DNA of 39,898 nucleotides, taken from the IMG/VR virus record IMGVR_UViG_3300027804_000105, positions 1 to 39,898 of that record. One strand, 5' to 3'. The position numbers and the translations under genes were made by a program. Positions 11,826 through 39,898 of this stretch are shown here, in pieces; position 1 is the first letter of the stretch, and every line of letters begins with the position of its first letter. The stretch comes from a virus (Duplodnaviria > Caudoviricetes). A model generated the notes under the pieces. It made no database searches. It worked only from the letters and a program-made list of their open reading frames with translations, and was not told the origin of the DNA.

Positions 11826-11993
11826 CTACCTAGGGAAACACACTCATGGCGAACTACGGAGTGGCAATTACCTAGGCAAAACACCCTAGGTATCCCTACT
11901 CAGTGGAATCTACCCAGGGTAAACTCCCTAAGTATGGCTACCTAGTGGAACATACCTAGTGTAAACACCCTAGGTAGTAGCACCTAGGGCTGG
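11826..11993. repeat. 12 x 14-bp degenerate tandem array, consensus about CTACCTAGKGNAAN
   Basis: CCTAG at 11829, 11871, 11885, 11941, 11955, 11969 and 11983, with variants at 11843, 11857, 11899, 11913 and 11927, all in an exact 14-bp register. Confidence 0.88.
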
Positions 11994-15545: not shown

Positions 15546-15800
15546 ATGAGTAAGACGTGCCCAACCTGCGGGCAGTTGATGCCCGGGCTTCCTTCGGCCC
15601 GCAGGGGACGCCCGCCGGTTCGCCATCCGGCTTGCGCCCGTGCCTTTGAAAACCAACGCGAGGCCGAGCGTATGCGTCGCAACCGTTCGGAAGTGAATAC
15701 GAGACGCGAAAGGCTTGACCTTTGGCATCAAATCCGGTCTTTTCTTTATCAGCCAACGGCAAGTCCGCTTGAGCTTTTGATGCTTTCGGAAGAGGAATGA
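15546..15800 (+). CDS. Small Zn-ribbon protein
   Basis: Start MSKTCPTCGQ after GGAGG; RRGRPP motif and HPAC. Confidence 0.6.
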   Translation: MSKTCPTCGQLMPGLPSARRGRPPVRHPACARAFENQREAERMRRNRSEVNTRRERLDLWHQIRSFLYQPTASPLELLMLSEEE

Positions 15801-15826: not shown

Positions 15827-16096
15827 ATGAAAACACAGGAAACGAAACCGGAAATGACGGCTCCATTGGCTCTGGCGCCTTGTTCGGCCGCAGCAGCAAC
15901 AATGTTCGGCCGCACGATCTTGGTTGGAGACTACGTGCATGTGCGATTCCCGTGGGGCCGTTTTTACGGAGAAATGGAGGGCACCGTGCTGGAGCTAAAA
16001 CGGTTACGGTGCGGCAAGCACGAGGGGCGCCTTCCGTGCGGTTTGTGGTTTCAAGAATCAGATGAGCTTTTGAATCACAAGCCGAACTCCAAATGA
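15827..16096 (+). CDS. Cassette protein (SH3/KOW-like beta protein)
   Basis: Starts MKTQETKPEM upstream of half site A; ends ...KPNSK* across attC B. Confidence 0.65.
   Translation: MKTQETKPEMTAPLALAPCSAAAATMFGRTILVGDYVHVRFPWGRFYGEMEGTVLELKRLRCGKHEGRLPCGLWFQESDELLNHKPNSK
15866..15888 (-). repeat. attC half site A (R''/L'' arm only)
   Basis: TTGGCTCTGGCGCCTTGTTCGGC; no partner arm found upstream. Confidence 0.7.
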
Positions 16097-16172
16097 TGAA
16101 CCACGCCCAACCAACGCGGCTACGCTTCGCCCCGCCGGCTACGTGGGCGTTGGTTCTGGCGACTTGTTAGTC
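16081..16172 (-). repeat. attC site B
   Basis: GCCGAAC...GAACCACGCCCA / TGGGCGTTGGTTC (one extra T)...GTTAGTC. Confidence 0.85.
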
Positions 16173-16185
16173 ATTCTTCCGAACG

Positions 16186-16317
16186 ATGAAAAAAGCAAAA
16201 AACATGGATGAGGCATGGAAAATCCAAGAAACCTACGAAGGCAAGCCGCACGGCTGGGTGCAGTGGAATGGGACGGTGCTACGCCGAGGAAAAAGACTCT
16301 ATGAAACCAACCGATGA
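16186..16317 (+). pseudogene. Probably truncated cassette gene
   Basis: MKKAKNMDEAWKIQETYEGKPHGWVQWNGT... stops after 43 aa where the left arm of attC C is missing. Confidence 0.45.
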
Positions 16318-16660
16318 AAATAGCGCGGCGGCACAGGCCGTTGCCACTGGGGACTTGTTCTGCGCTTCGCTCGAATGGCACAAGGGGCCGGCCGAGGGCG
16401 GACAGGGCTCCGCAGGAAAGAACGATGACGGAGTTCCGCAGTGGTGGGACGGCGACCGCCTGCTCATCATCGTGGAGACCTGTGCCGGGCGTGAGATGGC
16501 CGTCGTGGACATCAGAGCGGACCAAGAATACTTCGACGTGCGCGATGCCAGCACTGGCGACACCTATGATGCGTGGGAGCCGGAATGCTGGTCGTGGTGG
16601 GCAAAACTCACAAAGCACAATCTTCCGCAGAACGTCAAAGATGAGCCACGCCGCAAATGA
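16301..16660 (+). CDS. Cassette protein, hypothetical
   Basis: Start MKPTDENS; ends ...PQNVKDEPRRK* inside attC D. Confidence 0.7.
   Translation: MKPTDENSAAAQAVATGDLFCASLEWHKGPAEGGQGSAGKNDDGVPQWWDGDRLLIIVETCAGREMAVVDIRADQEYFDVRDASTGDTYDAWEPECWSWWAKLTKHNLPQNVKDEPRRK
16338..16363 (-). repeat. attC half site C (R''/L'' arm only)
   Basis: CCGTTGCCACTGGGGACTTGTTCTGC; its core GTTCTGC is complementary to GCAGAAC at 16627. Confidence 0.7.
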
Positions 16661-16715
16661 GTAACGACACCACCAACCAGCAACCGTCGGCTATGGCTCT
16701 GGCGCCTTGTTCGGC
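16627..16715 (-). repeat. attC site D
   Basis: GCAGAACGTCAAAGATGAGCCA...TGGCTCTGGCGCCTTGTTCGGC. Confidence 0.85.
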
Positions 16716-16721
16716 ATTCTT

Positions 16722-16964
16722 ATGGGCAAAAGACTACCAGTAAACGCGCGCTTTATCGAGCAACCAGCCGAGCTAGTGCTGTGCCTTTCATGCGCGTGGC
16801 AAGGCGATTGGAACTCCCTCAAAACCCAACCATCGCGCCGTGCGCACGCAACCGACGGCCGCGCTAAGTGCCCCCGTTGCAAAACGCCGGGACACTTCAA
16901 AAGGATTGGGCCGAACGGTCGGAGTGAGCCAACGCCGAGGACAGAGCCATTACTTCACCCCTGA
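16722..16964 (+). CDS. Cassette protein, Zn finger (CLSC...CPRC)
   Basis: ATG at 16722; two CxxC pairs; ends ...GPNGRSEPTPRTEPLLHP* inside attC E. Confidence 0.65.
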   Translation: MGKRLPVNARFIEQPAELVLCLSCAWQGDWNSLKTQPSRRAHATDGRAKCPRCKTPGHFKRIGPNGRSEPTPRTEPLLHP

Positions 16965-16998
16965 GACTGTCGGCGTTGGCTCTAATCCGTGGTTGGCC
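16910..16998 (-). repeat. attC site E
   Basis: GCCGAAC...GAGCCAACGCCGA / TCGGCGTTGGCTC...GTTGGCC. Confidence 0.85.
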
Positions 16999-17038
16999 GG
17001 CCGTGGAATTGGTGCCCGAAAATATAATCGAAACACGC

Positions 17039-17066
17039 TTGACGGACTAGGCGCAATGCCTAGTGT
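17039..17066 (+). promoter_or_regulatory. Cassette-internal promoter with overlapping palindromic operator
   Basis: TTGACG-16 nt-TAGTGT; inverted repeat ACTAGGC-N5-GCCTAGT at 17046-17064. Confidence 0.6.
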
Positions 17067-17108
17067 GAGTGTGTCGGAGGCAATGACGCCCGAGACACCT
17101 AAACCAAA

Positions 17109-17300
17109 ATGAAAAACGAAATGATCAAAGCGAAGAGCCTCGAAGCCGCCAAAGCCAACGCCCCCGAGGGAACGCGCTTCGTGCATACCGCCTCGGTGAT
17201 GGATGATTGCGGAACGGGCGGCTTCTGCGGCTACTACTTCACCCCCGAGCAGGAGCGCGAATACAACGACGGAATGGCCCGCATGGCGGAGATGGGATGA
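17109..17300 (+). CDS. Cassette protein, hypothetical
   Basis: 63 aa, ATGA-coupled to the HTH gene. Confidence 0.6.
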   Translation: MKNEMIKAKSLEAAKANAPEGTRFVHTASVMDDCGTGGFCGYYFTPEQEREYNDGMARMAEMG

Positions 17301-17491
17301 GCTCCGACGCCTACAAAGCCGAGCGCGAACGGCGCGGCACGCAAGCGAGCGTTGCCGCGCTCTTGCGCGTCGATCCGCAAACAATCTCCCGCCGCGAGCG
17401 CGGGGAAATCCCCATCACCCACGAAGCCGGGCTTGCTCTTCTTTCGCTCCCGAAGAAACGCAAGCGCCCGCTCAGGCCGGCCAACGTCTAA
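17297..17491 (+). CDS. XRE/Cro-type HTH DNA-binding protein
   Basis: GTQASVAALLRVDPQTISRRERGEIPI matches the HTH_XRE pattern; ends ...PANV* in attC F. Confidence 0.85.
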   Translation: MSSDAYKAERERRGTQASVAALLRVDPQTISRRERGEIPITHEAGLALLSLPKKRKRPLRPANV

Positions 17492-17608
17492 TATGAGCCA
17501 CGCACCCGAATACAATTGCCCGCCCGTGTGCGGGGAATGCCGCCGAGCGCATCGCGGGCCATGCCAGCCAGACCAGCCCGGTGCGTTGGCTCTGGGGACT
17601 GGTTGGAC
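17479..17608 (-). repeat. attC site F
   Basis: GGCCAAC...GAGCCACGCACC / GGTGCGTTGGCTC (extra T)...GTTGGAC. Confidence 0.85.
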
Positions 17609-17795
17609 TGCGCCGTCCGCCATACCCCCTGACGTGGCCCGTAAGATCATTGCGGCCCGTGATGCTATCGCCAACGAAGACACGTCCGAAGCGTGGCATC
17701 AGCTCTATTCCATCGCCGATCCATCGTTTGAGAGCGTGACCCCGTGGGCGATTCTCGAAGCGAAGTCCAACGTCAAAGATGAGCCACGCCCCTAA
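17493..17795 (+). CDS. Cassette protein, hypothetical
   Basis: ATG lies in the attC F arm (MSHAPEYNC...); ends ...KSNVKDEPRP* in attC G. Confidence 0.65.
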   Translation: MSHAPEYNCPPVCGECRRAHRGPCQPDQPGALALGTGWTAPSAIPPDVARKIIAARDAIANEDTSEAWHQLYSIADPSFESVTPWAILEAKSNVKDEPRP

Positions 17796-17868
17796 AATGG
17801 ACACGAATACCACTGACTCTCCGAAAACTCAGGGCAACCCTAGCGTTGGCTCTGGCGCCTTGTTCGGC
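17765..17868 (-). repeat. attC site G
   Basis: GTCCAACGTCAAAGATGAGCCACGC...GCGTTGGCTCTGGCGCCTTGTTCGGC. Confidence 0.85.
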
Positions 17869-18133
17869 GGCTTGGATGCCTCGTCGGCCTCTGTGGCGGC
17901 GTATGCCGTGACGGTGCGTGGCGCTGCTCAACCTGCGGAAAAACTCTCAATTACCATGACGACAAACCCTGACGGGAAACCCTATATCCACAACGCCGAG
18001 CAATCGGAGGCCGCGAAGTCATCGTCGCGCTTTCGCTGGAAAAGCGCGGCCTTGGCCGGTTCGTCTCTGAGCGCGCCGAGTATCGCCTCCCCGGCGACCG
18101 CCGCATCGTCCACCATGGTGGACACTTCTACAC

Positions 18134-18355
18134 ATGAGAGCATACCACACCACAGAAAGCCTCGGCATCAAAGCCCTTGAGCGCCCCGCCTATGAGCGCG
18201 GCGACTTCCCGCGCTACCTTGTCACTGTGGACGGCAAGACCGAGACCGTCAAAACGCCCCGCGCCCTTCAAAAGCTACTAGGCTCGATCTACTCCGAACG
18301 ACCGGAGGTGTTCGTGAACGCTGGCAACGGAATCAGCATAAACTTTGACCAATGA
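18134..18355 (+). CDS. Hypothetical protein
   Basis: 73 aa, ATGA-coupled to the next gene. Confidence 0.6.
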   Translation: MRAYHTTESLGIKALERPAYERGDFPRYLVTVDGKTETVKTPRALQKLLGSIYSERPEVFVNAGNGISINFDQ

Positions 18356-18639
18356 CCAACGCCGACCTCGAAACCATACGCCGCGCCATCTCCGAGGTGT
18401 GCGCGGCCTACGATGAACCGGACAGCCCCGAGGCTCTATCCTGCGCGTTCTATCAACTGCGCCGTGTGCGCGACTACGTGCTCCCGCGCTGCGCTCCGAC
18501 CGGGCGCAAAGGCGGGCTGTCCAAGTCGCCCGCGTTGCAGGCTGCGCGGCGTGCCAATGGTGCGAAATCCAAAGGACGCCCCCGCAAGCCGGTTGACGCG
18601 GCACGCAATGGCCCTAGGATCGCGTTTAGACCAATTTGA
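18352..18639 (+). CDS. Basic putative DNA-binding protein
   Basis: C-terminal GRKGG..KS....AARRANG....GRPRK motif, frequent in phage proteins. Confidence 0.6.
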   Translation: MTNADLETIRRAISEVCAAYDEPDSPEALSCAFYQLRRVRDYVLPRCAPTGRKGGLSKSPALQAARRANGAKSKGRPRKPVDAARNGPRIAFRPI

Positions 18640-18823
18640 GGTGGTCGTTGATGGGAAGACAGGGGTTGCTCGTGGACCCCGTAGAATTGGACGGCATTTG
18701 CGTCCCGATTGGTCTTCGGGGTGGGCTTCGGAGTAGGAGGCTGGCTCAAAGTGGCTAGAATTTGAAGGAAAGTGCCATTTTGGGCTTGCAAACATGGGTG
18801 ATAGTATTCATTCCTTCAATCAA

Positions 18824-18926
18824 GCGGTATCGGAGCCGCGCAACAACCCATTTCGGTAGGCTTAATTGCCCCGACCGATGGCCCAGTGGCGTGAAACTCC
18901 GATCTCCCCACTGGGCCTTTTCTTTT
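18824..18926 (+). ncRNA. Candidate three-hairpin regulatory RNA ending in a terminator
   Basis: Three stems; ATCGGAG (18829-18835) is complementary to CTCCGAT (18897-18903) in the loop of the last stem GGCCCAGTGG/CCACTGGGCC, followed by a T-tract. Confidence 0.5.
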
Positions 18927-19262
18927 GGCCCACGCAGAACCCAAGGCTGCGTTAAGCTACAGAGCACTTGGGGGCTTTAAGCGGCTTAACAGTCAGCAGA
19001 GCTAGATTGAACCACAAATCCTAGAGTCCCTTTCACGGAGTTTCAGGCGTCTAGGTCAGGATACGAGGCGACAGCAGACGGCATACAGCGACGGGTTCAA
19101 TCGAAAGCAAGGAGAGGTCCTCTTTGCGAATCAGCTCTCGGCAAATCGAAGTTTTCCTTAGCTTTCCGGCTCAGGAAACTCCGCTATGCACCGGCACCAG
19201 CGACGGTAAGGCGGAGGGAGTGATAGGGAGTGTTAATAAATCAATGTTAAAGGCGAACAACT

Positions 19263-19829
19263 ATGAGTAGAATGAGCGAATCGGAGGCTTACAAGTTAGC
19301 CAAGGAGCTTTTTAGCTACGATCCCGAAACTGGGATTATTACTCGCATTGCAGCTCCCGTAAAGAGCAACGGCAGTAGGGATAACCGAGGGGTTGGCAAG
19401 CCAACTGGATCGCTCAGTTCGCAAGGGTATCTACAGACCTGCATTTTTAGAAAAAGGTTTTCCAACCACCGGCTCGCATGGTTGCTACAAACCGGTGCGT
19501 GGCCTAAACAAGAAATTGATCATATCAACGGGGTCAAGACCGACAACCGTTGGTGCAATCTTCGGGACGTAAGTCGGATTGAAAACATGGCCAATCGGCA
19601 TAAGAAATGGGGAAAGAATAAGGGCCTTCCCATTGGGATTACTGAACAAGTCCATAAGGGTGGGTATCGTTATTTTCTGGTGACTCATGCTCGAAACCAC
19701 GTTTGTAGGGCATCTACTCGCTCTACCCTTGACGAAGCAATAGAACTGCTGCAAGCATTCCGCGACGAACTCAGATCACTTTCTGCCACAACGGCGGATT
19801 ATCAAAACAACCAACAAGTCAGCAACTAA
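19263..19829 (+). CDS. HNH (homing-type) endonuclease
   Basis: YDPETG, HRLAW and EIDHINGVKTDNRWCNLR motifs; lower GC. Confidence 0.9.
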   Translation: MSRMSESEAYKLAKELFSYDPETGIITRIAAPVKSNGSRDNRGVGKPTGSLSSQGYLQTCIFRKRFSNHRLAWLLQTGAWPKQEIDHINGVKTDNRWCNLRDVSRIENMANRHKKWGKNKGLPIGITEQVHKGGYRYFLVTHARNHVCRASTRSTLDEAIELLQAFRDELRSLSATTADYQNNQQVSN

Positions 19830-19841
19830 CCAATACCAACT

Positions 19842-20426
19842 ATGTGTTCACTCATTTTGACCGAAACCAAGAAGAAGTCCGATCCTACGCCCAGGGGCCT
19901 GCATCAAGTGGTCTGCTACGGCGTCATTGACATCGGCACGCAGAAGTCGGCCAATCCGGCCCATCCCGACAAGCGGAAGGTGCTTCTGCTGTTCGAGCTG
20001 CCCCACGAAACCAAGGTGTTTGACGGCAAAGAGGAGCGTCGGGTTATGTCCCGCTCGCTGGCAATTTCAATGAACGAAAAGGCCACCCTGTTCAAGTTCC
20101 TGTCCGGTTGGCTGGGGGAGAAGCCCAAGACCGGCTTTGACCTCCGCAGCCTGATTGGGAAGAACGGACAGGCCAACGTGGTTCATAGCCCCAGCAAGTC
20201 CGACCCCAGCACCATCTACGCCAACCTGGACTCGGTGGTTGCGCTTGCCAAGGGTATGCAGGCCGTTGCGCCCAGCCGCGAAACCATCACCTTCACCATC
20301 CCGCCCGGCGGCCCCATCGACATCCCGAGCTACATGCCTGAGTGGATTGCCGATAAGATTCAGGAAAGCGCCGAGTTCAAGGCGCGGGTTGGGGCGGCGG
20401 CGGCGGTGAAGATGGGCGGGGAATAA
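19842..20426 (+). CDS. Phage replication/SSB-like protein (resembles NGO0469 family)
   Basis: H..VCYGVIDIGTQ, FELP, SMNEKATL and MPEWIADKI.ES.E motifs. Confidence 0.6.
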   Translation: MCSLILTETKKKSDPTPRGLHQVVCYGVIDIGTQKSANPAHPDKRKVLLLFELPHETKVFDGKEERRVMSRSLAISMNEKATLFKFLSGWLGEKPKTGFDLRSLIGKNGQANVVHSPSKSDPSTIYANLDSVVALAKGMQAVAPSRETITFTIPPGGPIDIPSYMPEWIADKIQESAEFKARVGAAAAVKMGGE

Positions 20427-20641
20427 AAGCGAACACTGACAGTTGAGGGGTGTCCCCTTCAAAAGCACAACACGGGGTCCGGGTTGAAGTCCCGGCAGGC
20501 GCCCAGCGCCGAGCTAATGCAGCACCCCGTTTCAATTTTGACATTTCCCTCCCGGCCGAAGCCTTACGCTTGACGTAGGATAGGAGACCGGCTCCGTAGG
20601 CACGGGCGGGACTAAACCAGCAAACACAGAAAGACAAACCT

Positions 20642-20953
20642 ATGATAAGCAACACGGCGGCAAAATGCCTCAACGAATCCCCGCATGAATCATTCATGCG
20701 CTGGTTCGAGACCAAAATGACCGAGCTTGAGAAGAACAACTTCTTGGTTATGCCCAAGCAAAAAACGTCTCAAGCGGTGGGCTTTGCGAAAACGGAAAGG
20801 CCGCGCACGCCGGCTACGATGGCAAAACTCGCCAAGGCCGAAGAGATTGTTGCGGCCAACCCCAACATCAGCCGCAAACGGCTTAGTAAGCTCACGGGGG
20901 TATGCGACAAGGTTCTCCGTGCCAAGTTCGGTAAAGCCGCCTATTTCCGATGA
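20642..20953 (+). CDS. Putative DNA-binding protein (C-terminal HTH)
   Basis: NPNISRKRLSKLTGVCDKVLR. Confidence 0.55.
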   Translation: MISNTAAKCLNESPHESFMRWFETKMTELEKNNFLVMPKQKTSQAVGFAKTERPRTPATMAKLAKAEEIVAANPNISRKRLSKLTGVCDKVLRAKFGKAAYFR

Positions 20954-21135
20954 ACGAGTATCTCAACGAATCTATCCGGCTGCGTAGCGAGCTGATCGCC
21001 AGCAATGCCCTTCTGCGCGACGCCGAGGCAATCATTGCCGACTTCATGCGCTATTTTCCCGGCCCCGAGTGCCAAGAGCAGGAATCGGTTTGCGACGATG
21101 CCAGGGCTTTCCTGAAGGCTCTCAATGAACGCTGA
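20950..21135 (+). CDS. Hypothetical protein
   Basis: 61 aa, ATGA-coupled. Confidence 0.55.
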   Translation: MNEYLNESIRLRSELIASNALLRDAEAIIADFMRYFPGPECQEQESVCDDARAFLKALNER

Positions 21136-21412
21136 AACAAACAAAGGTGCTTGGACGAAATGGTCCGACGCCAACCACGCTGCTGTCGAAGCAGCGGAAG
21201 CTCTGGCGCCTTGTTCGGCCCTTCGGTGGGCCGTCTTTCCGTGCGGATGGAAATGGGAAATTGCTAGTCTGACGCGCGAAAACGAAACCCCGGTCGCGCT
21301 TTTTGAGCACAAGCACCACGCAGAATCTTTCTGCCGCGAATGGTGGCCGGCCCTCGGCGAAGTGCGCCCTTTGCCGAACACCAAGAGCAGCCGCGGCACG
21401 GCGCAGCCGTGA
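21125..21412 (+). CDS. Cassette protein, hypothetical
   Basis: Reads through half site H (ALAPCSA); ends ...LPNTKSSRGTAQP* in attC I. Confidence 0.65.
   Translation: MNAETNKGAWTKWSDANHAAVEAAEALAPCSALRWAVFPCGWKWEIASLTRENETPVALFEHKHHAESFCREWWPALGEVRPLPNTKSSRGTAQP
21200..21219 (-). repeat. attC half site H
   Basis: GCTCTGGCGCCTTGTTCGGC, identical to the arms of A, D and G. Confidence 0.7.
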
Positions 21413-21437
21413 CGTTGGCTGTCTCGCTTTGTTAGGT
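21373..21437 (-). repeat. attC site I (65 bp, canonical)
   Basis: Minus strand reads ACCTAACAAAGCGAGACAGCCAACGTCACGGCTGCGCCGTGCCGCGGCTGCTCTTGGTGTTCGGC. Confidence 0.9.
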
Positions 21438-21460
21438 GCCTCTTTCTCCAACTCACGAAA

Positions 21461-21823
21461 ATGAAATTCACAGTCTCAAAACGCTTCTCCTTCGAGGCCG
21501 CTCACTCGCTGCCTCAACTCCCTGTCGGGCACAAGTGCCGCAACGTGCATGGCCACTCCTACGTCGTGGAAATCCACGTCGCCGGCCCGCTCGACTCGCG
21601 CGGCTTCGTGGTGGACTACGCCGATCTATCGCTGGCGATGGCCCCAATTATCGCGCGACTGGATCACCAGAATATCAACGATGTGCTCCCGTGCAGCACC
21701 ACCGCCGAAAACCTCGGCGCGTGGATCATGTCGCAGCTCGACAAACACTCAGGGCTGAAACCGCGCGTCTCGCGTGTGGATGTGTATGAGACGGCGAAAA
21801 CCTGCGTGCGCGTGGAAAGATGA
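21461..21823 (+). CDS. queD: 6-carboxytetrahydropterin synthase
   Basis: FEAAH, C..VHGHSY, LDH..IN, TAEN and YET motifs. Confidence 0.93.
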   Translation: MKFTVSKRFSFEAAHSLPQLPVGHKCRNVHGHSYVVEIHVAGPLDSRGFVVDYADLSLAMAPIIARLDHQNINDVLPCSTTAENLGAWIMSQLDKHSGLKPRVSRVDVYETAKTCVRVER

Positions 21824-22473
21824 TGATTCTCGCCGGACAATCCAATCCGCTCTGGCACTACGCCGCTGGCCGCTGGCCGGGTAAGGTGGGGCTACTGCTT
21901 GGACCTGCCTACTTTCGCAAGCAGGCAATCCGTCCGTGGCTGACCTACGTGCTCGACAACGACGCTTTCTCGGCTTGGAGCAACGGCACGGAATGGAATC
22001 ACGCCGCATGGACTGAGATGCTAAGGCGCGCGATGCTCAACAAGCACAAACCTGCGTGGGTGCTCGTGCCGGACGTTGTGGCGGATAAAGCGGCAACGCT
22101 TGCAAGCTGGGACCGGCACGCTCCCGAGGCCGCGAGCTACGGCTGGCCGCTCGCCTTCGCCGTGCAGGATGGAATGACACCGGACGACGTGCCGGAAAAC
22201 GCACAGGTGATCTTTGTCGGCGGCACAACCGAATGGAAATGGCGCAGCCTGCCGATGTGGTGTGCGAGATTTCGGCGGGTGCATGTGGGGCGCGTCAACA
22301 ACATCGAAAAAGTCTATCACTGCGAAGACATGGGCGTTGAGTCCGTGGACGGCACCGGATGGTTCAAAGACCCAACGCGCGAAGACAAACTTCCCGCCCT
22401 GCTTTCTTGGTTTGAAGGCGAGAGGCGCAACGAAAAACAAATGGCGTTGATTGAGGCACCTAACGTTAAATGA
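21820..22473 (+). CDS. Putative TGT/DpdA-like TIM-barrel protein
   Basis: LDNDAFS, VPDVV, AVQDG, FVGG..WK, HVGRVN and SVDGTG motifs; ATGA-coupled to queD; ends ...APNVK* in attC J. Confidence 0.6.
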   Translation: MMILAGQSNPLWHYAAGRWPGKVGLLLGPAYFRKQAIRPWLTYVLDNDAFSAWSNGTEWNHAAWTEMLRRAMLNKHKPAWVLVPDVVADKAATLASWDRHAPEAASYGWPLAFAVQDGMTPDDVPENAQVIFVGGTTEWKWRSLPMWCARFRRVHVGRVNNIEKVYHCEDMGVESVDGTGWFKDPTREDKLPALLSWFEGERRNEKQMALIEAPNVK

Positions 22474-22585
22474 TGAGCCACGGAGCGGGAAATGAAACAC
22501 CCGCCCGTAGCTCAAACTACCTATGAAAACACAGGAAACGAAACCGGAAATGACCGCTCCGTTGGACTCTGGCGATTTGTTGGGC
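22458..22585 (-). repeat. attC site J
   Basis: ACCTAAC...GAGCCACGGAGCGG / CCGCTCCGTTGGACTC...GTTGGGC. Confidence 0.85.
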
Positions 22586-22879
22586 GCGGCCAAGAATGCA
22601 ATCAAGGGGTGGGCCGAACTCACCGATACGACGCACCCGCGCGCCTTCGCTCGCATGAGCGCCGCGATTGAAAAACTCTGCGATGCAATTGAGGAGCACG
22701 AATCCGCCGAAGCCGGGCGTGTCGTGGACGCCATGACGCCCGAACAGGTGGATGCATACCTCGTGAGCATGGGCGTGAATCTCGACGAGATGCGTGCGCA
22801 CACCGAACAGATGCGGCAAAAACTGACCGCGCGCTTTTCTTCGCCCAACGTCGCGGATGACCGAGCCGCAACCAAGTAG
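22523..22879 (+). CDS. Cassette protein, hypothetical
   Basis: Starts MKTQETKPEM in the attC J loop; ends ...SPNVADDRAATK* in attC K. Confidence 0.7.
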   Translation: MKTQETKPEMTAPLDSGDLLGAAKNAIKGWAELTDTTHPRAFARMSAAIEKLCDAIEEHESAEAGRVVDAMTPEQVDAYLVSMGVNLDEMRAHTEQMRQKLTARFSSPNVADDRAATK

Positions 22880-22933
22880 GCCGCACTTCGCCCTGCGGCG
22901 AACGTGCGGCTTCGGTCTGGACGCTTGTTCGAA
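22843..22933 (-). repeat. attC site K
   Basis: GCCCAAC...GACCGAGCCGCA / TGCGGCTTCGGTC (extra T)...GTTCGAA. Confidence 0.85.
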
Positions 22934-22956
22934 AAGACCGAGCCAATGACTTCCAA

Positions 22957-23247
22957 ATGAAAACCAAAACTCAAATCTGTAAGCTCTGCGAGATATTCGG
23001 CGATGGCCCCTGCTCTCCGAAATGCCTAGAGGCTGCGCAGGAAAAGGTGGCGCGTGCGATCCACGCGGAACACAACGCGCATGAGGGGCTGGAAACTGCG
23101 TGGATCGAGCTACACCATTTCCAGCGGGAGAAATATCGCGGCAAAGCATACGCCGCCCTCGTGGCTCTGGGAGCGCCAAAGAAAAAGGCCACGCCGAGGC
23201 GGTCGAACGTCCCGGATCAGCAACGCGCAGGAGCGAAGGAGAAATAA
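22957..23247 (+). CDS. Cassette protein, Cys-rich N-terminus
   Basis: CKLC...CSPKC; ends ...RSNVPDQQRAGAKEK* in attC L. Confidence 0.65.
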   Translation: MKTKTQICKLCEIFGDGPCSPKCLEAAQEKVARAIHAEHNAHEGLETAWIELHHFQREKYRGKAYAALVALGAPKKKATPRRSNVPDQQRAGAKEK

Positions 23248-23459
23248 ACAATGCCCACGAAAAACACCATAGACGACGCCAGCCATCAAGAATGGTCCAA
23301 AGCCGGACAGATGCCGACCGAGCAACAGCGCCGCGACTGGTATGCAAAATCTGCGAAGATCGAAGGCGACGCCTGCGTGGGCGCTGGACTCCCGAGCGGA
23401 ATCGCGCCGTGCAAACCGCAGGCTCCGTCAGCGCGTTCGCTGTGGCCGGATGGTTCTCT
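23202..23459 (-). repeat. attC site L (very long loop)
   Basis: GTCGAACGTCCCGGATCAGCAACGCGC pairs with GCGCGTTCGCTGTGGCCGGATGGTTCTCT about 200 nt away. Confidence 0.7.
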
Positions 23460-23673
23460 TCCGGTCGTGGAAGCCGAAGCTCTGGAACGCAAATGGTCCG
23501 AAGACGTGCAATGGTGGCGAGACAGAGCGAAGTCCCAAATCGAAAAAGGACACCCACTACTCGCGGAACTATCGTCGCAGTCCGCAGACGTGCTATCGGG
23601 CTGTGCCGCGCAGCTTGGCCGACTGATAGCACAGTCGAAATCGCGCCAGCCGGAAGAGAACAAGGAGGTATGA
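23251..23673 (+). CDS. Cassette protein, hypothetical
   Basis: AAGGAG ribosome-binding site and ATG inside the attC L loop; ends ...PEENKEV*. Confidence 0.7.
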   Translation: MPTKNTIDDASHQEWSKAGQMPTEQQRRDWYAKSAKIEGDACVGAGLPSGIAPCKPQAPSARSLWPDGSLPVVEAEALERKWSEDVQWWRDRAKSQIEKGHPLLAELSSQSADVLSGCAAQLGRLIAQSKSRQPEENKEV

Positions 23674-23704
23674 CAACTTTCAAAGTTAAAAAACTAACTC
23701 ATTT

Positions 23705-24508: not shown

Positions 24509-24734
24509 ACGCAAACCCAAGCCAGAAGAAAAGCCGGCGGTTGTGGAACGAGCAAGGCCCGTAAGCGGACTGCCGCTGGACTTTAGCCGCTGCTGGAACG
24601 ACGAGTGCGTCAAGGGAAGCACCTGCCTGCGTCGCATTGGAGCTATGGACGTAGGCGCCACCGTTTTCTTCAAGCCCAACCTAAACAAAGATGGTGCCTG
24701 CGAGCATTTCATTCAGGACAAACGAAATAAATGA
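24498..24734 (+). CDS. Small Cys-rich hypothetical protein
   Basis: GTG start; D.SRC....C.....C.R...C pattern; ATGA-coupled to dnaB. Confidence 0.55.
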   Translation: MAAKRKPKPEEKPAVVERARPVSGLPLDFSRCWNDECVKGSTCLRRIGAMDVGATVFFKPNLNKDGACEHFIQDKRNK

Positions 24735-27319
24735 CCAAAGCCAAAACAAACCTCCCCCATTCCGAAGAGGGTGAACGGTCTCTCATAACGCACGTCCTTT
24801 TGGACGGCGCTCCCGCCCTCTGCAAATGCTTTGAGGGCAAAATTACGCCGGAGGTGTTTTACGACCCGGTTTGCCAGAAGGTATGGAAGTCGATTTGCTG
24901 GCTGCACAAGCAAGGACACCCCGTTGAGCTTGCCGTGTTAGCAGAGGAGCTTAAAAAGGCCGGCAAACTGGACGAGCTAGGGGGCTACGAAGCTCTTACC
25001 ACCGTCACAAGCGGTCAGGACATCAGCAAAAACCTCGACTACTGGGTAGCTCGGCTGCGTGAGCTTTACGTCCTCCGCGAGCTTCATGGGGCTGCCACCC
25101 GCACCGCCGAAAAGGCTCTGGCCTACTCCGGCAGCGTCGAAGACTTCGTTTCCGAGACCCACCGCATCCTCTCCATCCAGCACGCCGCCCAAAAGGCCAT
25201 GACGCTGCCCGAGGCGGCTACCTCCGCCCAAGAGCAATGCTTACGAATCCGAGGCTCTGAACCGCTTACGGAAGAGGACAAGGGACTGTCTTGGGGTTGG
25301 AAAGACTGGGACGACCGTTTCGGCTGCGCCAAGGCCGGCGAACTGCTGGTTTTGGGAGCCCGTCCAGGATGCGGAAAGAGCAGCATTGCCCGCCAAGTGG
25401 CATGGGAATGGTCAAAGGGCGGCAAAATCCTCTTATTTTCAAGGGAAATGCCCGTAGAAGGGCTTCCTGTGCTCTTTGCCCAAGCCCTTTCCGGCAAGTC
25501 ATGGAAGGAATACCGCAACCGGAGGCTTCACGACAAGGACATGGACGAGTTTGATGACGCCTTGGCTGCCGTGTCCCGCAACCCAAACATCCTCGCTTTT
25601 GACAAGGACCGGACGCTTTCGCAGCTCATGGCCCGTATTCAGGCTTGCCGTCAACTTATGCCCATCCGTGCTGTTGTCGTGGACTACCTGCAACGCTACG
25701 ATCCGCAGCAAGAGCGCGGGGAAACCCGCGACATTGCCATAGGTCGGTTTAGTATGGCGCTCAAGGATGTTGCCGTTGACCTCAAGATTCCGGTTTTGCT
25801 TCTGGTTCAGGTCAGCCGAGGGGTGGAGAAAGAGGATCGGGAGCCACGTCTTTCCGACATCCGAGAGTGTCTTTCCGTAAAGGACACCTACGTCTTCAAC
25901 AGCCAAGGCATCTGGCGCAACACCGAGGCCCCCATCGCCACCGTCGGCCTGTCTCAAGGCGGCAGCTTGGTTGCCTCCGAAAGCCGTAACGCTCCGCGAG
26001 AGGATGCGCCGGAAATGATTCGGATAACGCTCCAGAGCGGCCGAACCATCACCTGCACGCCCCGCCATGCCATCAAAACCGACAACGGGTGGACGATTGC
26101 CGAAGCCATCACCAAGGAAAGCGCCATTGCCTGCGCCCGCCGCATCCCTGCCCCCCGCAACTGCGAATACTTCCACGTAAGCCGCTGGATGGGGTGGATG
26201 CTTGGCAACGGCTCCGGCGTCGGCAGCCAGTCGCCATCCTTCATCACGTCATGCGAGGTTGTGGCCCAAGAGTTCTGCAAACAGAATAATGCGCTGTTTG
26301 GCTTCTACCCGAAGCCTCATCGCCACAAGTGCCAGAAGGTGTTTCAATACGACATCACGAAGCATACCGTTCGGACGCCCGAGGGCAATCCGGCTACCAA
26401 CTGGATGCGGAAGCATGACATGTGGGGACGCCGCTCATGGGAGAAGCGCATCCCCCAATGGTTTTGCGAGACAGCCGACAACCAGAGCCTTGCCGAGCTT
26501 ATCGCCGGCCTTTGGGAGACGGACGGGCGTGTCATGCTCAAGCCCCGCCCCTCCCTGTCCTACTCCACCACTTCCGAGCACATGGCTTGGCAGGTTGTTT
26601 GGGCGCTCCTTCGCCTCGGCATCTACGCCGCAATTGAGCCCGGATACATGGGAAAGAAGGCAAAGCATCCTTGTTTCAAGGTTTGTATCCGCGTAGCCGA
26701 AGAAATAGCGCGGTTTGCCGCCAAAATCCCGCTCATTGGCCGCAAGGGCGACTTGCTACGTCAGGTTGATTCAACCCGAACCAGCAACATCGCAGGCTCC
26801 CGTTTCAGCGTAGGCGTTGGCAAACTCGTTGAGTCCATCAGGAAACGCTACGGCCTTACCCATGCCCAAATCGGCTATCGCTTTCAGGGCAAGCGTATCT
26901 CCTACGATGATTTGATGCGAGTTTGGGCGAACCTCATGGACAGAGGCATGATGAATGAACACATCCAAAGTCTTGTCGGAGAGGACGTGTTTTGGGACAA
27001 GCCGCGTAAGATTGAGCGCGTGGCCGGCGGACCGGTGTTTGATCGGGTTGTCCCCGAGCACCACAACTTCGTAGCCAACGGGGTCATAGTTCACAACTCG
27101 GGCAACGTGGAGCAGGATGCAGATCGCGTCATATTCATCCACGCACCTACCGCCCTTCCAGACGGCAGCACTCAAGACCTAAACGATGGCGACTTGCGAC
27201 GAATCCACACCAACCTTATCCAAGCCAAAGGCCGTGGAGAGGGAAGAGACAAGTTGACAATGTTCTTCAATCGCCCAATAACCGCTTTTGAAGAGGAACG
27301 AAAGGGATTGAAACTATGA
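24731..27319 (+). CDS. dnaB: Replicative DNA helicase DnaB with intein
   Basis: LPHS.E.E N-domain, GARPGCGKS, VVDYLQ, Q.SR, P.LSDIRE|intein|SGNVEQDAD, K.R. Confidence 0.95.
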   Translation: MTKAKTNLPHSEEGERSLITHVLLDGAPALCKCFEGKITPEVFYDPVCQKVWKSICWLHKQGHPVELAVLAEELKKAGKLDELGGYEALTTVTSGQDISKNLDYWVARLRELYVLRELHGAATRTAEKALAYSGSVEDFVSETHRILSIQHAAQKAMTLPEAATSAQEQCLRIRGSEPLTEEDKGLSWGWKDWDDRFGCAKAGELLVLGARPGCGKSSIARQVAWEWSKGGKILLFSREMPVEGLPVLFAQALSGKSWKEYRNRRLHDKDMDEFDDALAAVSRNPNILAFDKDRTLSQLMARIQACRQLMPIRAVVVDYLQRYDPQQERGETRDIAIGRFSMALKDVAVDLKIPVLLLVQVSRGVEKEDREPRLSDIRECLSVKDTYVFNSQGIWRNTEAPIATVGLSQGGSLVASESRNAPREDAPEMIRITLQSGRTITCTPRHAIKTDNGWTIAEAITKESAIACARRIPAPRNCEYFHVSRWMGWMLGNGSGVGSQSPSFITSCEVVAQEFCKQNNALFGFYPKPHRHKCQKVFQYDITKHTVRTPEGNPATNWMRKHDMWGRRSWEKRIPQWFCETADNQSLAELIAGLWETDGRVMLKPRPSLSYSTTSEHMAWQVVWALLRLGIYAAIEPGYMGKKAKHPCFKVCIRVAEEIARFAAKIPLIGRKGDLLRQVDSTRTSNIAGSRFSVGVGKLVESIRKRYGLTHAQIGYRFQGKRISYDDLMRVWANLMDRGMMNEHIQSLVGEDVFWDKPRKIERVAGGPVFDRVVPEHHNFVANGVIVHNSGNVEQDADRVIFIHAPTALPDGSTQDLNDGDLRRIHTNLIQAKGRGEGRDKLTMFFNRPITAFEEERKGLKL
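25868..27097 (+). mobile_element. Intein (410 aa) with LAGLIDADG homing endonuclease
   Basis: Begins CLSVKDT, block B TCTPRH, LAGLIDADG-like GWMLGNGS and LIAGLWETDG, ends HNFVANGVIVHN followed by Ser. Confidence 0.95.
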
Positions 27320-39864: not shown

Positions 39865-39898
39865 ACCGCTGCTGATGGAGGCTTCCTGTGCCTTGGTG
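39865..39898. repeat. Terminal overlap, right copy
   Basis: accgctgctgatggaggcttcctgtgccttggtg matches 1-34 at 32/34 positions. Confidence 0.9.

Follow-up and report, generated by a model that had tools for sequence, protein, structure and literature searches.

Two arrays of cassette-like units in a complete phage genome

The IMG/VR virus record IMGVR_UViG_3300027804_000105 (Duplodnaviria; Caudoviricetes), a stretch of 39,898 nucleotides (nt) analyzed at its full length and hereafter called the window, is a 40-kb phage genome rated 100% complete. It encodes a terminase, a major head protein, DnaB, an exonuclease, and HNH nucleases, and its sequence is present in freshwater metagenomes. Two arrays of short units, the subject of this study, are placed among its plus-strand early and replication genes. 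The units are separated by sites of the type found in integrons, i.e. R'' (AAC) and R' (GTT) boxes with inner L'' and L' repeats forming a hairpin. There are nine complete attC hairpins and three half sites, the GTT arms at 15882, 16357, and 21213 having no second hairpin arm. With at least two attC sites (the nine complete ones fall into two clusters) and no nearby intI, the units are cassettes of an attC cluster that has no integron integrase (CALIN), as defined by Cury 2016 (PMC4889954), and not of a complete integron. The latter arrangement, intI beside the array, was found in two other phages of like layout. The features of the two arrays are listed below, the strand of each attC being that of its top strand; the matrices used to assign arms are described further on.

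15864..15888, minus: half attC (R''-L'' arm), ragged far end of array 1, loop fused to a phage start codon near 15797 (host-only matrix)
15882..16087, plus: payload 1, 206 bp, 7-bp ends, gene on plus
16081..16172, minus: complete attC, 92 nt (arm matrix)
16166..16340, plus: truncated payload, opening core unpaired (5/7), probably fused by a deletion to the loop of the following site; right-hand limit approximate
16339..16363, minus: half attC (R''-L'' arm; host-only matrix)
16357..16633, plus: payload, 277 bp, 8-bp ends
16627..16715, minus: complete attC, 89 nt, near the Opitutaceae chromosomal type
16709..16916, plus: payload, 208 bp, 7-bp ends
16910..16998, minus: complete attC, 89 nt (host-only matrix)
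16992..17485, plus: payload, 494 bp, 11-bp ends, small open reading frame (ORF) and helix-turn-helix gene (17297-17491)
17479..17608, minus: complete attC, 130 nt, ATG in L' box opening a frame through the whole site into the next payload
17602..17771, plus: payload, 170 bp, 8-bp ends
17765..17868, minus: complete attC, 104 nt, 89% identical to a site of sister phage L146 that is flanked by other payloads
17862..18017, plus: truncated payload, homology to whole cassettes in L227 and L257 ending at 18017
21195..21219, minus: half attC (R''-L'' arm), ragged far end of array 2; backbone homology to both sister phages ends at 21137
21213..21379, plus: payload, 167 bp, 7-bp ends
21373..21437, minus: complete attC, 65 nt (host-only matrix)
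21431..22464, plus: payload, 1034 bp, 12-bp ends, QueD (21461-21823) and a 217-amino acid (aa) predicted triosephosphate isomerase (TIM) barrel (21820-22473)
22458..22585, minus: complete attC, 128 nt, its loop containing the following gene's start codon
22579..22849, plus: payload, 271 bp, 8-bp ends, cassette recurring in L229 and L257 with a compensatory core change
22843..22933, minus: complete but weak attC, 91 nt (host-only matrix and fold)
22927..23208, plus: payload, 282 bp, ends 6/7
23202..23459, minus: complete attC, 258 nt, loop containing the start and ~67 codons of the next gene
23453..23661, plus: payload, 209 bp, 12-bp ends, first in line at the docking site; L146 and L263 have distant homologues
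23659..23700, minus: attI-like docking site of array 2, putative crossover between 23660 and 23661 (sister homology, entry motif, and integron integrase in two phages)

The segment 15796-15888 matches complete attC sites in L004. A distant homologue of payload 16992 in L138 carries a different 11-bp stem, and no far end was found for payload 17862.

The two ends of each unit are complementary

An earlier note on this DNA, made from the letters alone, had reported ten units whose opening GTT core is complementary to the AAC core closing the same unit. All ten pairs were located where it had placed them, and the pairing is real, with three pairs (16357, 17602, and 22579) extending to 8 bp rather than the 7 bp reported. 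Contiguous complementarity spans, in order, 7, 8, 7, 11, 8, 7, 12, 8, 6, and 12 bp, and is perfect over 7 bp in nine of the ten pairs. Cores do match their partner across the unit better than their hairpin partner, which agrees at 4-6 of 7 positions in all nine complete hairpins. Cores are thus paired at both unit ends in 10 of 12 cases; the two cores omitted by the note, 16166 and 17862, have no perfect partner (best matches 5/7 and 6/7, respectively).

A single pair would mean little. As a control for chance, we counted window GTT triplets that have a perfect inverted 7-mer 150-1100 nt downstream, and found 60 among 605 (real ones included). When the core pairings were permuted, as the note had proposed, own pairs beat random orderings. 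At core positions 4-7, 39 of 40 positions match (permutation mean, 21.8), a score equaled by 6 of 3,628,800 orderings (exact P 1.7e-6), and at positions 8-12, 23 of 50 match versus 13.6 (P 0.003). Ten consecutive arm-anchored pairs are therefore not due to chance. The 11-12-bp stems in 3 of 10 units could recall terminal inverted repeats (TIRs) of small transposon-like elements. Against this, every stem is private to its unit and flanked by attC arms, the 10-nt flanks contain no target duplication, and no transposase family is represented among the 53 ORFs; we rejected this reading together with chance, both having a negligible probability. Likewise, with no shared TIR, target duplication, or transposase, the units do not qualify as miniature inverted-repeat transposable elements or insertion sequences.

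The attC sites are of Opitutaceae type and inverted

A 21-nt arm pattern matched 119 loci in species genomes, many of them from Opitutaceae. In Horticoccus sp. 23ND18S-11, these arms follow an integron integrase (TIGR02249, 370 bits vs. a cut-off of 265) and an attI, and the plus-strand arm sequence of the phage is the reverse complement of the Horticoccus attC top strand. Our first arm matrices were partly seeded with window sites, and orientation therefore rests on a matrix trained solely on intI-anchored host arrays (host-only matrix). This matrix assigns the attC top strand to minus for all nine complete hairpins and identifies the three half sites as R''-L'' arms. In addition, most alignments have an extra unpaired base on the right-hand arm (plus), which fixes the strand, as extra-helical bases sit on the R''-L'' arm (PMC2727003). 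The unpaired L'' base is best read as a T on the bottom strand, like in host sites, in an ambiguous register (a conserved extra-helical G is expected).

The cut made by integron integrase (IntI) in the bottom-strand R' falls between C and A (PMC2727003). With minus as the top strand, the crossover is therefore the closing AA↓C on plus (the arrow marks the point of exchange), and each gene or payload owns the hairpin to its left. This explains why the final AAC (23659-23661) has no hairpin after it. The G↓TT crossover cited by the earlier note corresponds to the canonical layout; here, the plus-strand GTT opening each unit is the R'' box seen on the bottom strand and not the point of exchange. 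Its suggestion to circularize units at AA↓C, on the other hand, fits the corrected register.

Since the attC family matches Opitutaceae chromosomal integrons, and such captures have been described in Vibrio phages (Qi 2023, PMC9892861), the arrays might be pieces of a bacterial chromosomal integron transduced once, in the canonical layout and with a crossover at plus-strand G↓TT. This is largely refuted and, in our view, very improbable. Besides the minus orientation of all nine attC sites, the genes are on the bottom strand in 10 of 10 units, in place of the typical (not obligatory) top-strand gene ending before attC; in canonical loci, the ORF is on the top strand in 261 of 349 cassettes and on the bottom strand in 2. 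Moreover, none of the 12 window payloads matched any of 409 host-type payloads at E 1e-4, and cassette content differs between sister phages (see below).

Reading frames cross the cassette junctions

All ten units have an ATG-started frame of 63-215 codons, which reaches the junction with AAC as an in-frame codon and ends 1-15 codons past it, within the neighbor. Six of these frames start to the left of the payload, in the hairpin region. The same frame lock was seen in 22 of 28 unambiguous cases among other phage payloads. Given their location on plus, the genes would be covered by the transcript of the phage itself. Because they point toward the docking site, a cassette promoter (Pc) located there could not drive them, and a scan with the Pc consensus returned 3 sites (3.8 expected), none at the docking site. 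In Horticoccus attC loops (L022:7990-8140 and others), we noticed by eye a top-strand start codon with a frame apparently ending at the L'-box TGA, possibly a leader peptide coupled to the cassette that follows.

In silico circularization favors R-box pairing

Circularizing the units in silico at AA↓C, another test proposed by the note, gave all seven hairpins examined a lower ensemble energy, the drop being 2.5-10.7 kcal/mol. R-box pairing rose from 0.00-0.42 to 0.95-0.99 in six of the seven, and foreign payload ends gave a mean R-box pairing of 0.00-0.34. The R'/R'' complementarity of the circular form is part of the ACID definition of cassettes (PMC2674596), and the hybrid nature of attC sites within arrays has been described (PMC5371416, PMC4889954).

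Cassettes turn over at a fixed site in sister phages

Sister phage L146 shares the backbone and has other cassettes in both arrays, homology resuming exactly at 23659 (84% over 4994 nt). In sister L229, the sequence flanking array 2 on either side is ~95% identical, and the array itself consists of a different cassette set with one cassette in common. This 271-bp cassette (22579) recurs with its left arm in L229 and L257; homology to L229 spans 22560-22849, ending at the junction, and the core change in L229/L257 is compensatory. The right-hand junction of array 2, at 23660/23661, is fixed. On the other side, the left array ends are ragged, and deletions fuse them to phage start codons. In metagenomes, freshwater contigs depart from the window just after cores. 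In run X3, much of the backbone has a summed contig depth of ~430-790 and several cassettes have one of 110-150, depth being only a hint. Contigs of runs X4, X6, and X8 link the end of a phage gene at 15804 to the loop (17509) of attC 17479, a variant without 1.7 kb of array 1.

Could these cassettes have been made long ago and now be moved mainly by homologous or microhomology recombination between attC arms, without integrase, the paired ends being fossils? The genome encodes no integrase, deletions have fused the left ends to phage start codons, and many contig joints lie within arms. Exchange inside a hairpin has indeed happened, as cassette 22579 and its counterparts in L229 and L257 share the R''-L'' arm of their attC and differ in its loop and L' arm. 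Nevertheless, sisters diverge exactly at the AA↓C of the docking site, which offers no hairpin to recombine with, neighboring hairpins are often dissimilar, and nine of ten ends are still perfect over 7 bp. As a full account we find this unlikely; arm recombination is likely to be a second route beside IntI, not a replacement for it.

The docking site is attI-like

The window site at 23659 is attI-like. An entry motif of ~40 nt with a small inverted repeat (window 23662-23700; also L001, L146, L240, and L337) is common to phages of 40, 144, and 190 kb, and the host-type attI of L212 has a similar inverted repeat. For scoring, we chose array heads by core complementarity and not by upstream sequence; the resulting set of 14 includes several related heads and L337, which was found by the motif. 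In leave-one-out tests, 11 of these 14 phage heads ranked in the top 2.5% of 4411 GTT sites. The window docking site ranked at 0.1% (P 0.001) and outscores all other window sites for the entry motif. Scanning with the motif returned 4 matches, each opening an array at its GTT, with only L337 independent of the pattern. When a host attI matrix was used, the phage head set was enriched (P 3.5e-4).

In two other phages, an intact IntI starts 33 and 40 nt past the entry AAC and has the same orientation as the cassette genes, which fixes polarity inside phages and points to this position as attI. The carriers, L134:4243-5235 (G006) and L131/L431 (G013), are phage records of 66 and 38 kb with inverted arrays, and their IntIs are ~35-47% identical to the other IntIs compared. 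By eye, some ORFs in L134 cassettes look like methyltransferases. A recombinase in the L007 record was discarded as an integron integrase, as it scored under the cut-off and did not resemble IntI. Among 80 exonuclease-relative loci, 11 had any arm at score 11, and none offered an empty docking site. These 11 comprise one sister phage, two copies of one locus with a single paired site, and otherwise single arms.

Complementary ends are an ordinary integron signature

With arms chosen without regard to cores, 7-bp end complementarity was present in 141 of 142 Horticoccus (Opitutaceae) chromosomal cassettes; of the 349 canonical cassettes, 308 were perfect over 7 bp, as were 42 of the 55 inverted ones. 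End complementarity itself is thus an ordinary integron signature, which the note had over-rated. Stem length does differ. Stems of at least 9 bp occur in 11 of 42 inverted versus 2 of 308 Opitutaceae-type cassettes (within-core permutation P 0.00065), and stems of at least 10 bp in 7 of 32 non-host cores versus 0 of 40 (P 0.002; rank test minus the window, P 0.15), host-type loci L235, L259, L260, and L327 having been set aside in the latter comparison. Long stems are no novelty of phage cassettes. Indeed, 10 of the 15 class 1 plasmid cassettes scored (19 tried, some related) reach at least 9 bp, and pairing of 9-11 nt is described for most cassettes (PMC2727003). Nor do long stems compensate for weak or long hairpins, as there was no correlation with hairpin length or stability across 60 sites. 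In Opitutaceae-type cassettes, R'-end position 8 is A in 233 of 308, and pairing beyond 7 bp is at or below chance, unlike in class 1 and phage cassettes.

Cargo and the possible genesis of cassettes

The longest payload encodes QueD and a 217-aa protein with no Pfam, NCBIfam, or PDB sequence match. The latter is predicted to form a TIM barrel (predicted local distance difference test score of 90), a fold matching transaldolases and tRNA-guanine transglycosylases (TGT) alike. Given the adjoining QueD, it is likely to be a TGT/DpdA-like base-exchange enzyme with a DNA-modifying role, in line with the 7-deazaguanine pathway. The gene for the 217-aa protein has homologues at 40 loci of viral contigs. 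Two attC arms are present at none of them, and simple motif filters identified QueC-like neighbors in 13 and QueD-like neighbors in 9. The same QueD pair is found in L151 with 75% nucleotide identity and no attC. These attC-less homologues, together with the lack of host payload matches, suggest that at least this cargo would be an ordinary phage module made into a cassette.

We also compared 10 homologous cassette pairs, hand-picked and not all independent. Both ends change in step in six of them: at position 4; at positions 4, 8, and 9; at five positions of an 11-bp stem; or by a shared one-base indel. A one-sided intermediate is present in one cassette family. Such in-step ends could have arisen by copying within the folded circle, by stepwise selection, or by separate captures. 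It is conceivable, if rather doubtful, that phages have an integron system of their own and turn their genes into new cassettes, an attC being put before an ordinary phage module and one end being overwritten with the sequence of the other while the circle is folded. The origin of new cassettes is stated to be unknown in PMC4889954 and PMC5371416.

Other features of the phage genome

Positions 1-34 and 39865-39898 form a 34-nt terminal repeat (94% identical), which fits a complete genome. Three 39-nt direct repeats with 42-nt spacing (11854-11976) lie at the switch between structural and early genes and are possibly an origin or promoter array. Between the arrays, ~500 nt (18744-19260) are largely non-coding, 90% identical in sister L146, and without Rfam match; indeed, an Rfam search of the window returned no match. 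The DnaB helicase (24731-27319) has 862 aa, of which DnaB profiles cover only the first 380, with an insert that looks intein-like by eye. Comparison with INPHARED phages gave a single 29-nt match (E 0.09), and RNA runs contained only patchy contigs.

Discussion

We consider it very probable that the units are integron cassettes forming two arrays in an integrase-less phage, with genes opposite to those of bacterial cassettes, and that their matching ends are likely to stem from entry as circles cut at AA↓C by an outside integron integrase. In the mechanism that we propose, a circle would carry a hairpin and a gene, and its bottom strand (plus here) would fold with R' and R'' in full pairing. 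An IntI supplied by the host or by a co-infecting phage would cut at AA↓C and insert the circle at the attI-like site. Integration would split the perfect R box and leave its halves at the two payload ends, which would account for the paired ends seen by the earlier note. New insertions would push older cassettes to the left, where deletions would erode them, and genes would often start in their own hairpin loop and borrow a stop codon from the neighbor.

The note's proposal that the units were inserted as circular cassettes is favored by the better fold of the circular form in 7 of 7 hairpins, by sister content differing at a fixed crossover, and by the compensatory change in the 271-bp cassette; no circle has been seen. 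The units are most likely to be integron cassettes that entered as circles. Several findings weigh against this view. The contigs of 8 runs, which were all that was searched, list no circle junctions. No match to a tyrosine recombinase (PF00589) was found anywhere in the complete record, and only 2 of the 28 phage records searched contain an integron integrase above the TIGR02249 cut-off. With the host attI matrix, the window docking site is just in the top 25%, and entry-motif scoring found no docking site for array 1. Only attC likeness points to Opitutaceae as the host. One attC, at 258 nt, exceeds the 57-142-nt range given in PMC2727003, into which the other eight of nine fall. Finally, one circularized site reached an R-box pairing of only 0.21, some foreign end gave a slightly lower energy than the own end in 2 of 7 hairpins, and just three of seven sites fold more stably on plus than on minus, a departure from the bottom-strand folding bias of mobile attC sites (PMC5027507).

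The kind itself, an integron cassette, is known; new here are the inversion, the docking site, the frame lock, and the phage-specific cargo. As in the cassettes described in Bouvier 2009 (PMC2727003), Nivina 2016 (PMC5027507), and PMC2674596, there is an R''-L''/L'-R' hairpin with extra bases on R''-L''. The crossover in the AAC of the bottom-strand R' and the circle with complementary R'/R'', often over 9-11 nt, are likewise shared (PMC2727003, PMC2674596). Unlike in these cassettes, window genes are on the bottom strand, often start in their own hairpin, and have no stop of their own, and one site is 258 nt long. The arrays of Horticoccus sp. 23ND18S-11 and other Opitutaceae chromosomal integrons (L022 and kin) have the same attC arm family and 7-bp ends, and their attI consists of an L box, a 6-nt spacer, and GTT. 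They differ from the window in their top-strand genes, the dominance of four cores, the lack of extension past 7 bp (2 of 308 reach 9), and the absence of any shared cargo that we could find.

Similar in setting are the phage CALINs of Qi et al. 2023 (PMC9892861), which likewise are integrase-less clusters of attC sites carried by phages and include modification-enzyme cargo. That study reports 17 CALINs, recombination of 5 of 6 sites by IntI1, and captures in Vibrio phages. In its main text, orientation is typical or mixed and virulent-phage CALINs have no attI-like site, and the main text describes no inversion, frame lock, or sister comparison, unlike for the window arrays. Insertion at attG sites, generating single attC sites lacking integron-integrases (SALINs), similarly involves IntI acting in trans to place cassettes in integrase-less DNA (bioRxiv 10.1101/2022.09.11.507474). 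In contrast to attG/SALINs, the window entry site is reused by sisters and its motif is common to unrelated phages; it therefore behaves as a dedicated attI and not as a random attG. A literature search largely confined to sources outside subscription journals turned up only plain phage CALINs (Qi 2023), and no description of phage arrays that are inverted and frame-locked and have an attI of their own.

An integrase-less phage thus keeps accessory genes in an integron-type array with its own docking site, inverted for reading from the phage transcript, and differing between sisters. Driven by a borrowed enzyme, such arrays would generate phage mosaicism in a site-specific manner. If phages do mint cassettes from their own genes, the in-step end changes and the long stems found only on non-host cores would be the footprint of copying, and would offer a handle on how cassettes are made. 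The non-cassette homologues of the QueD gene pair and the cassette pairs changing in step make both cassette genesis and end-copying testable.

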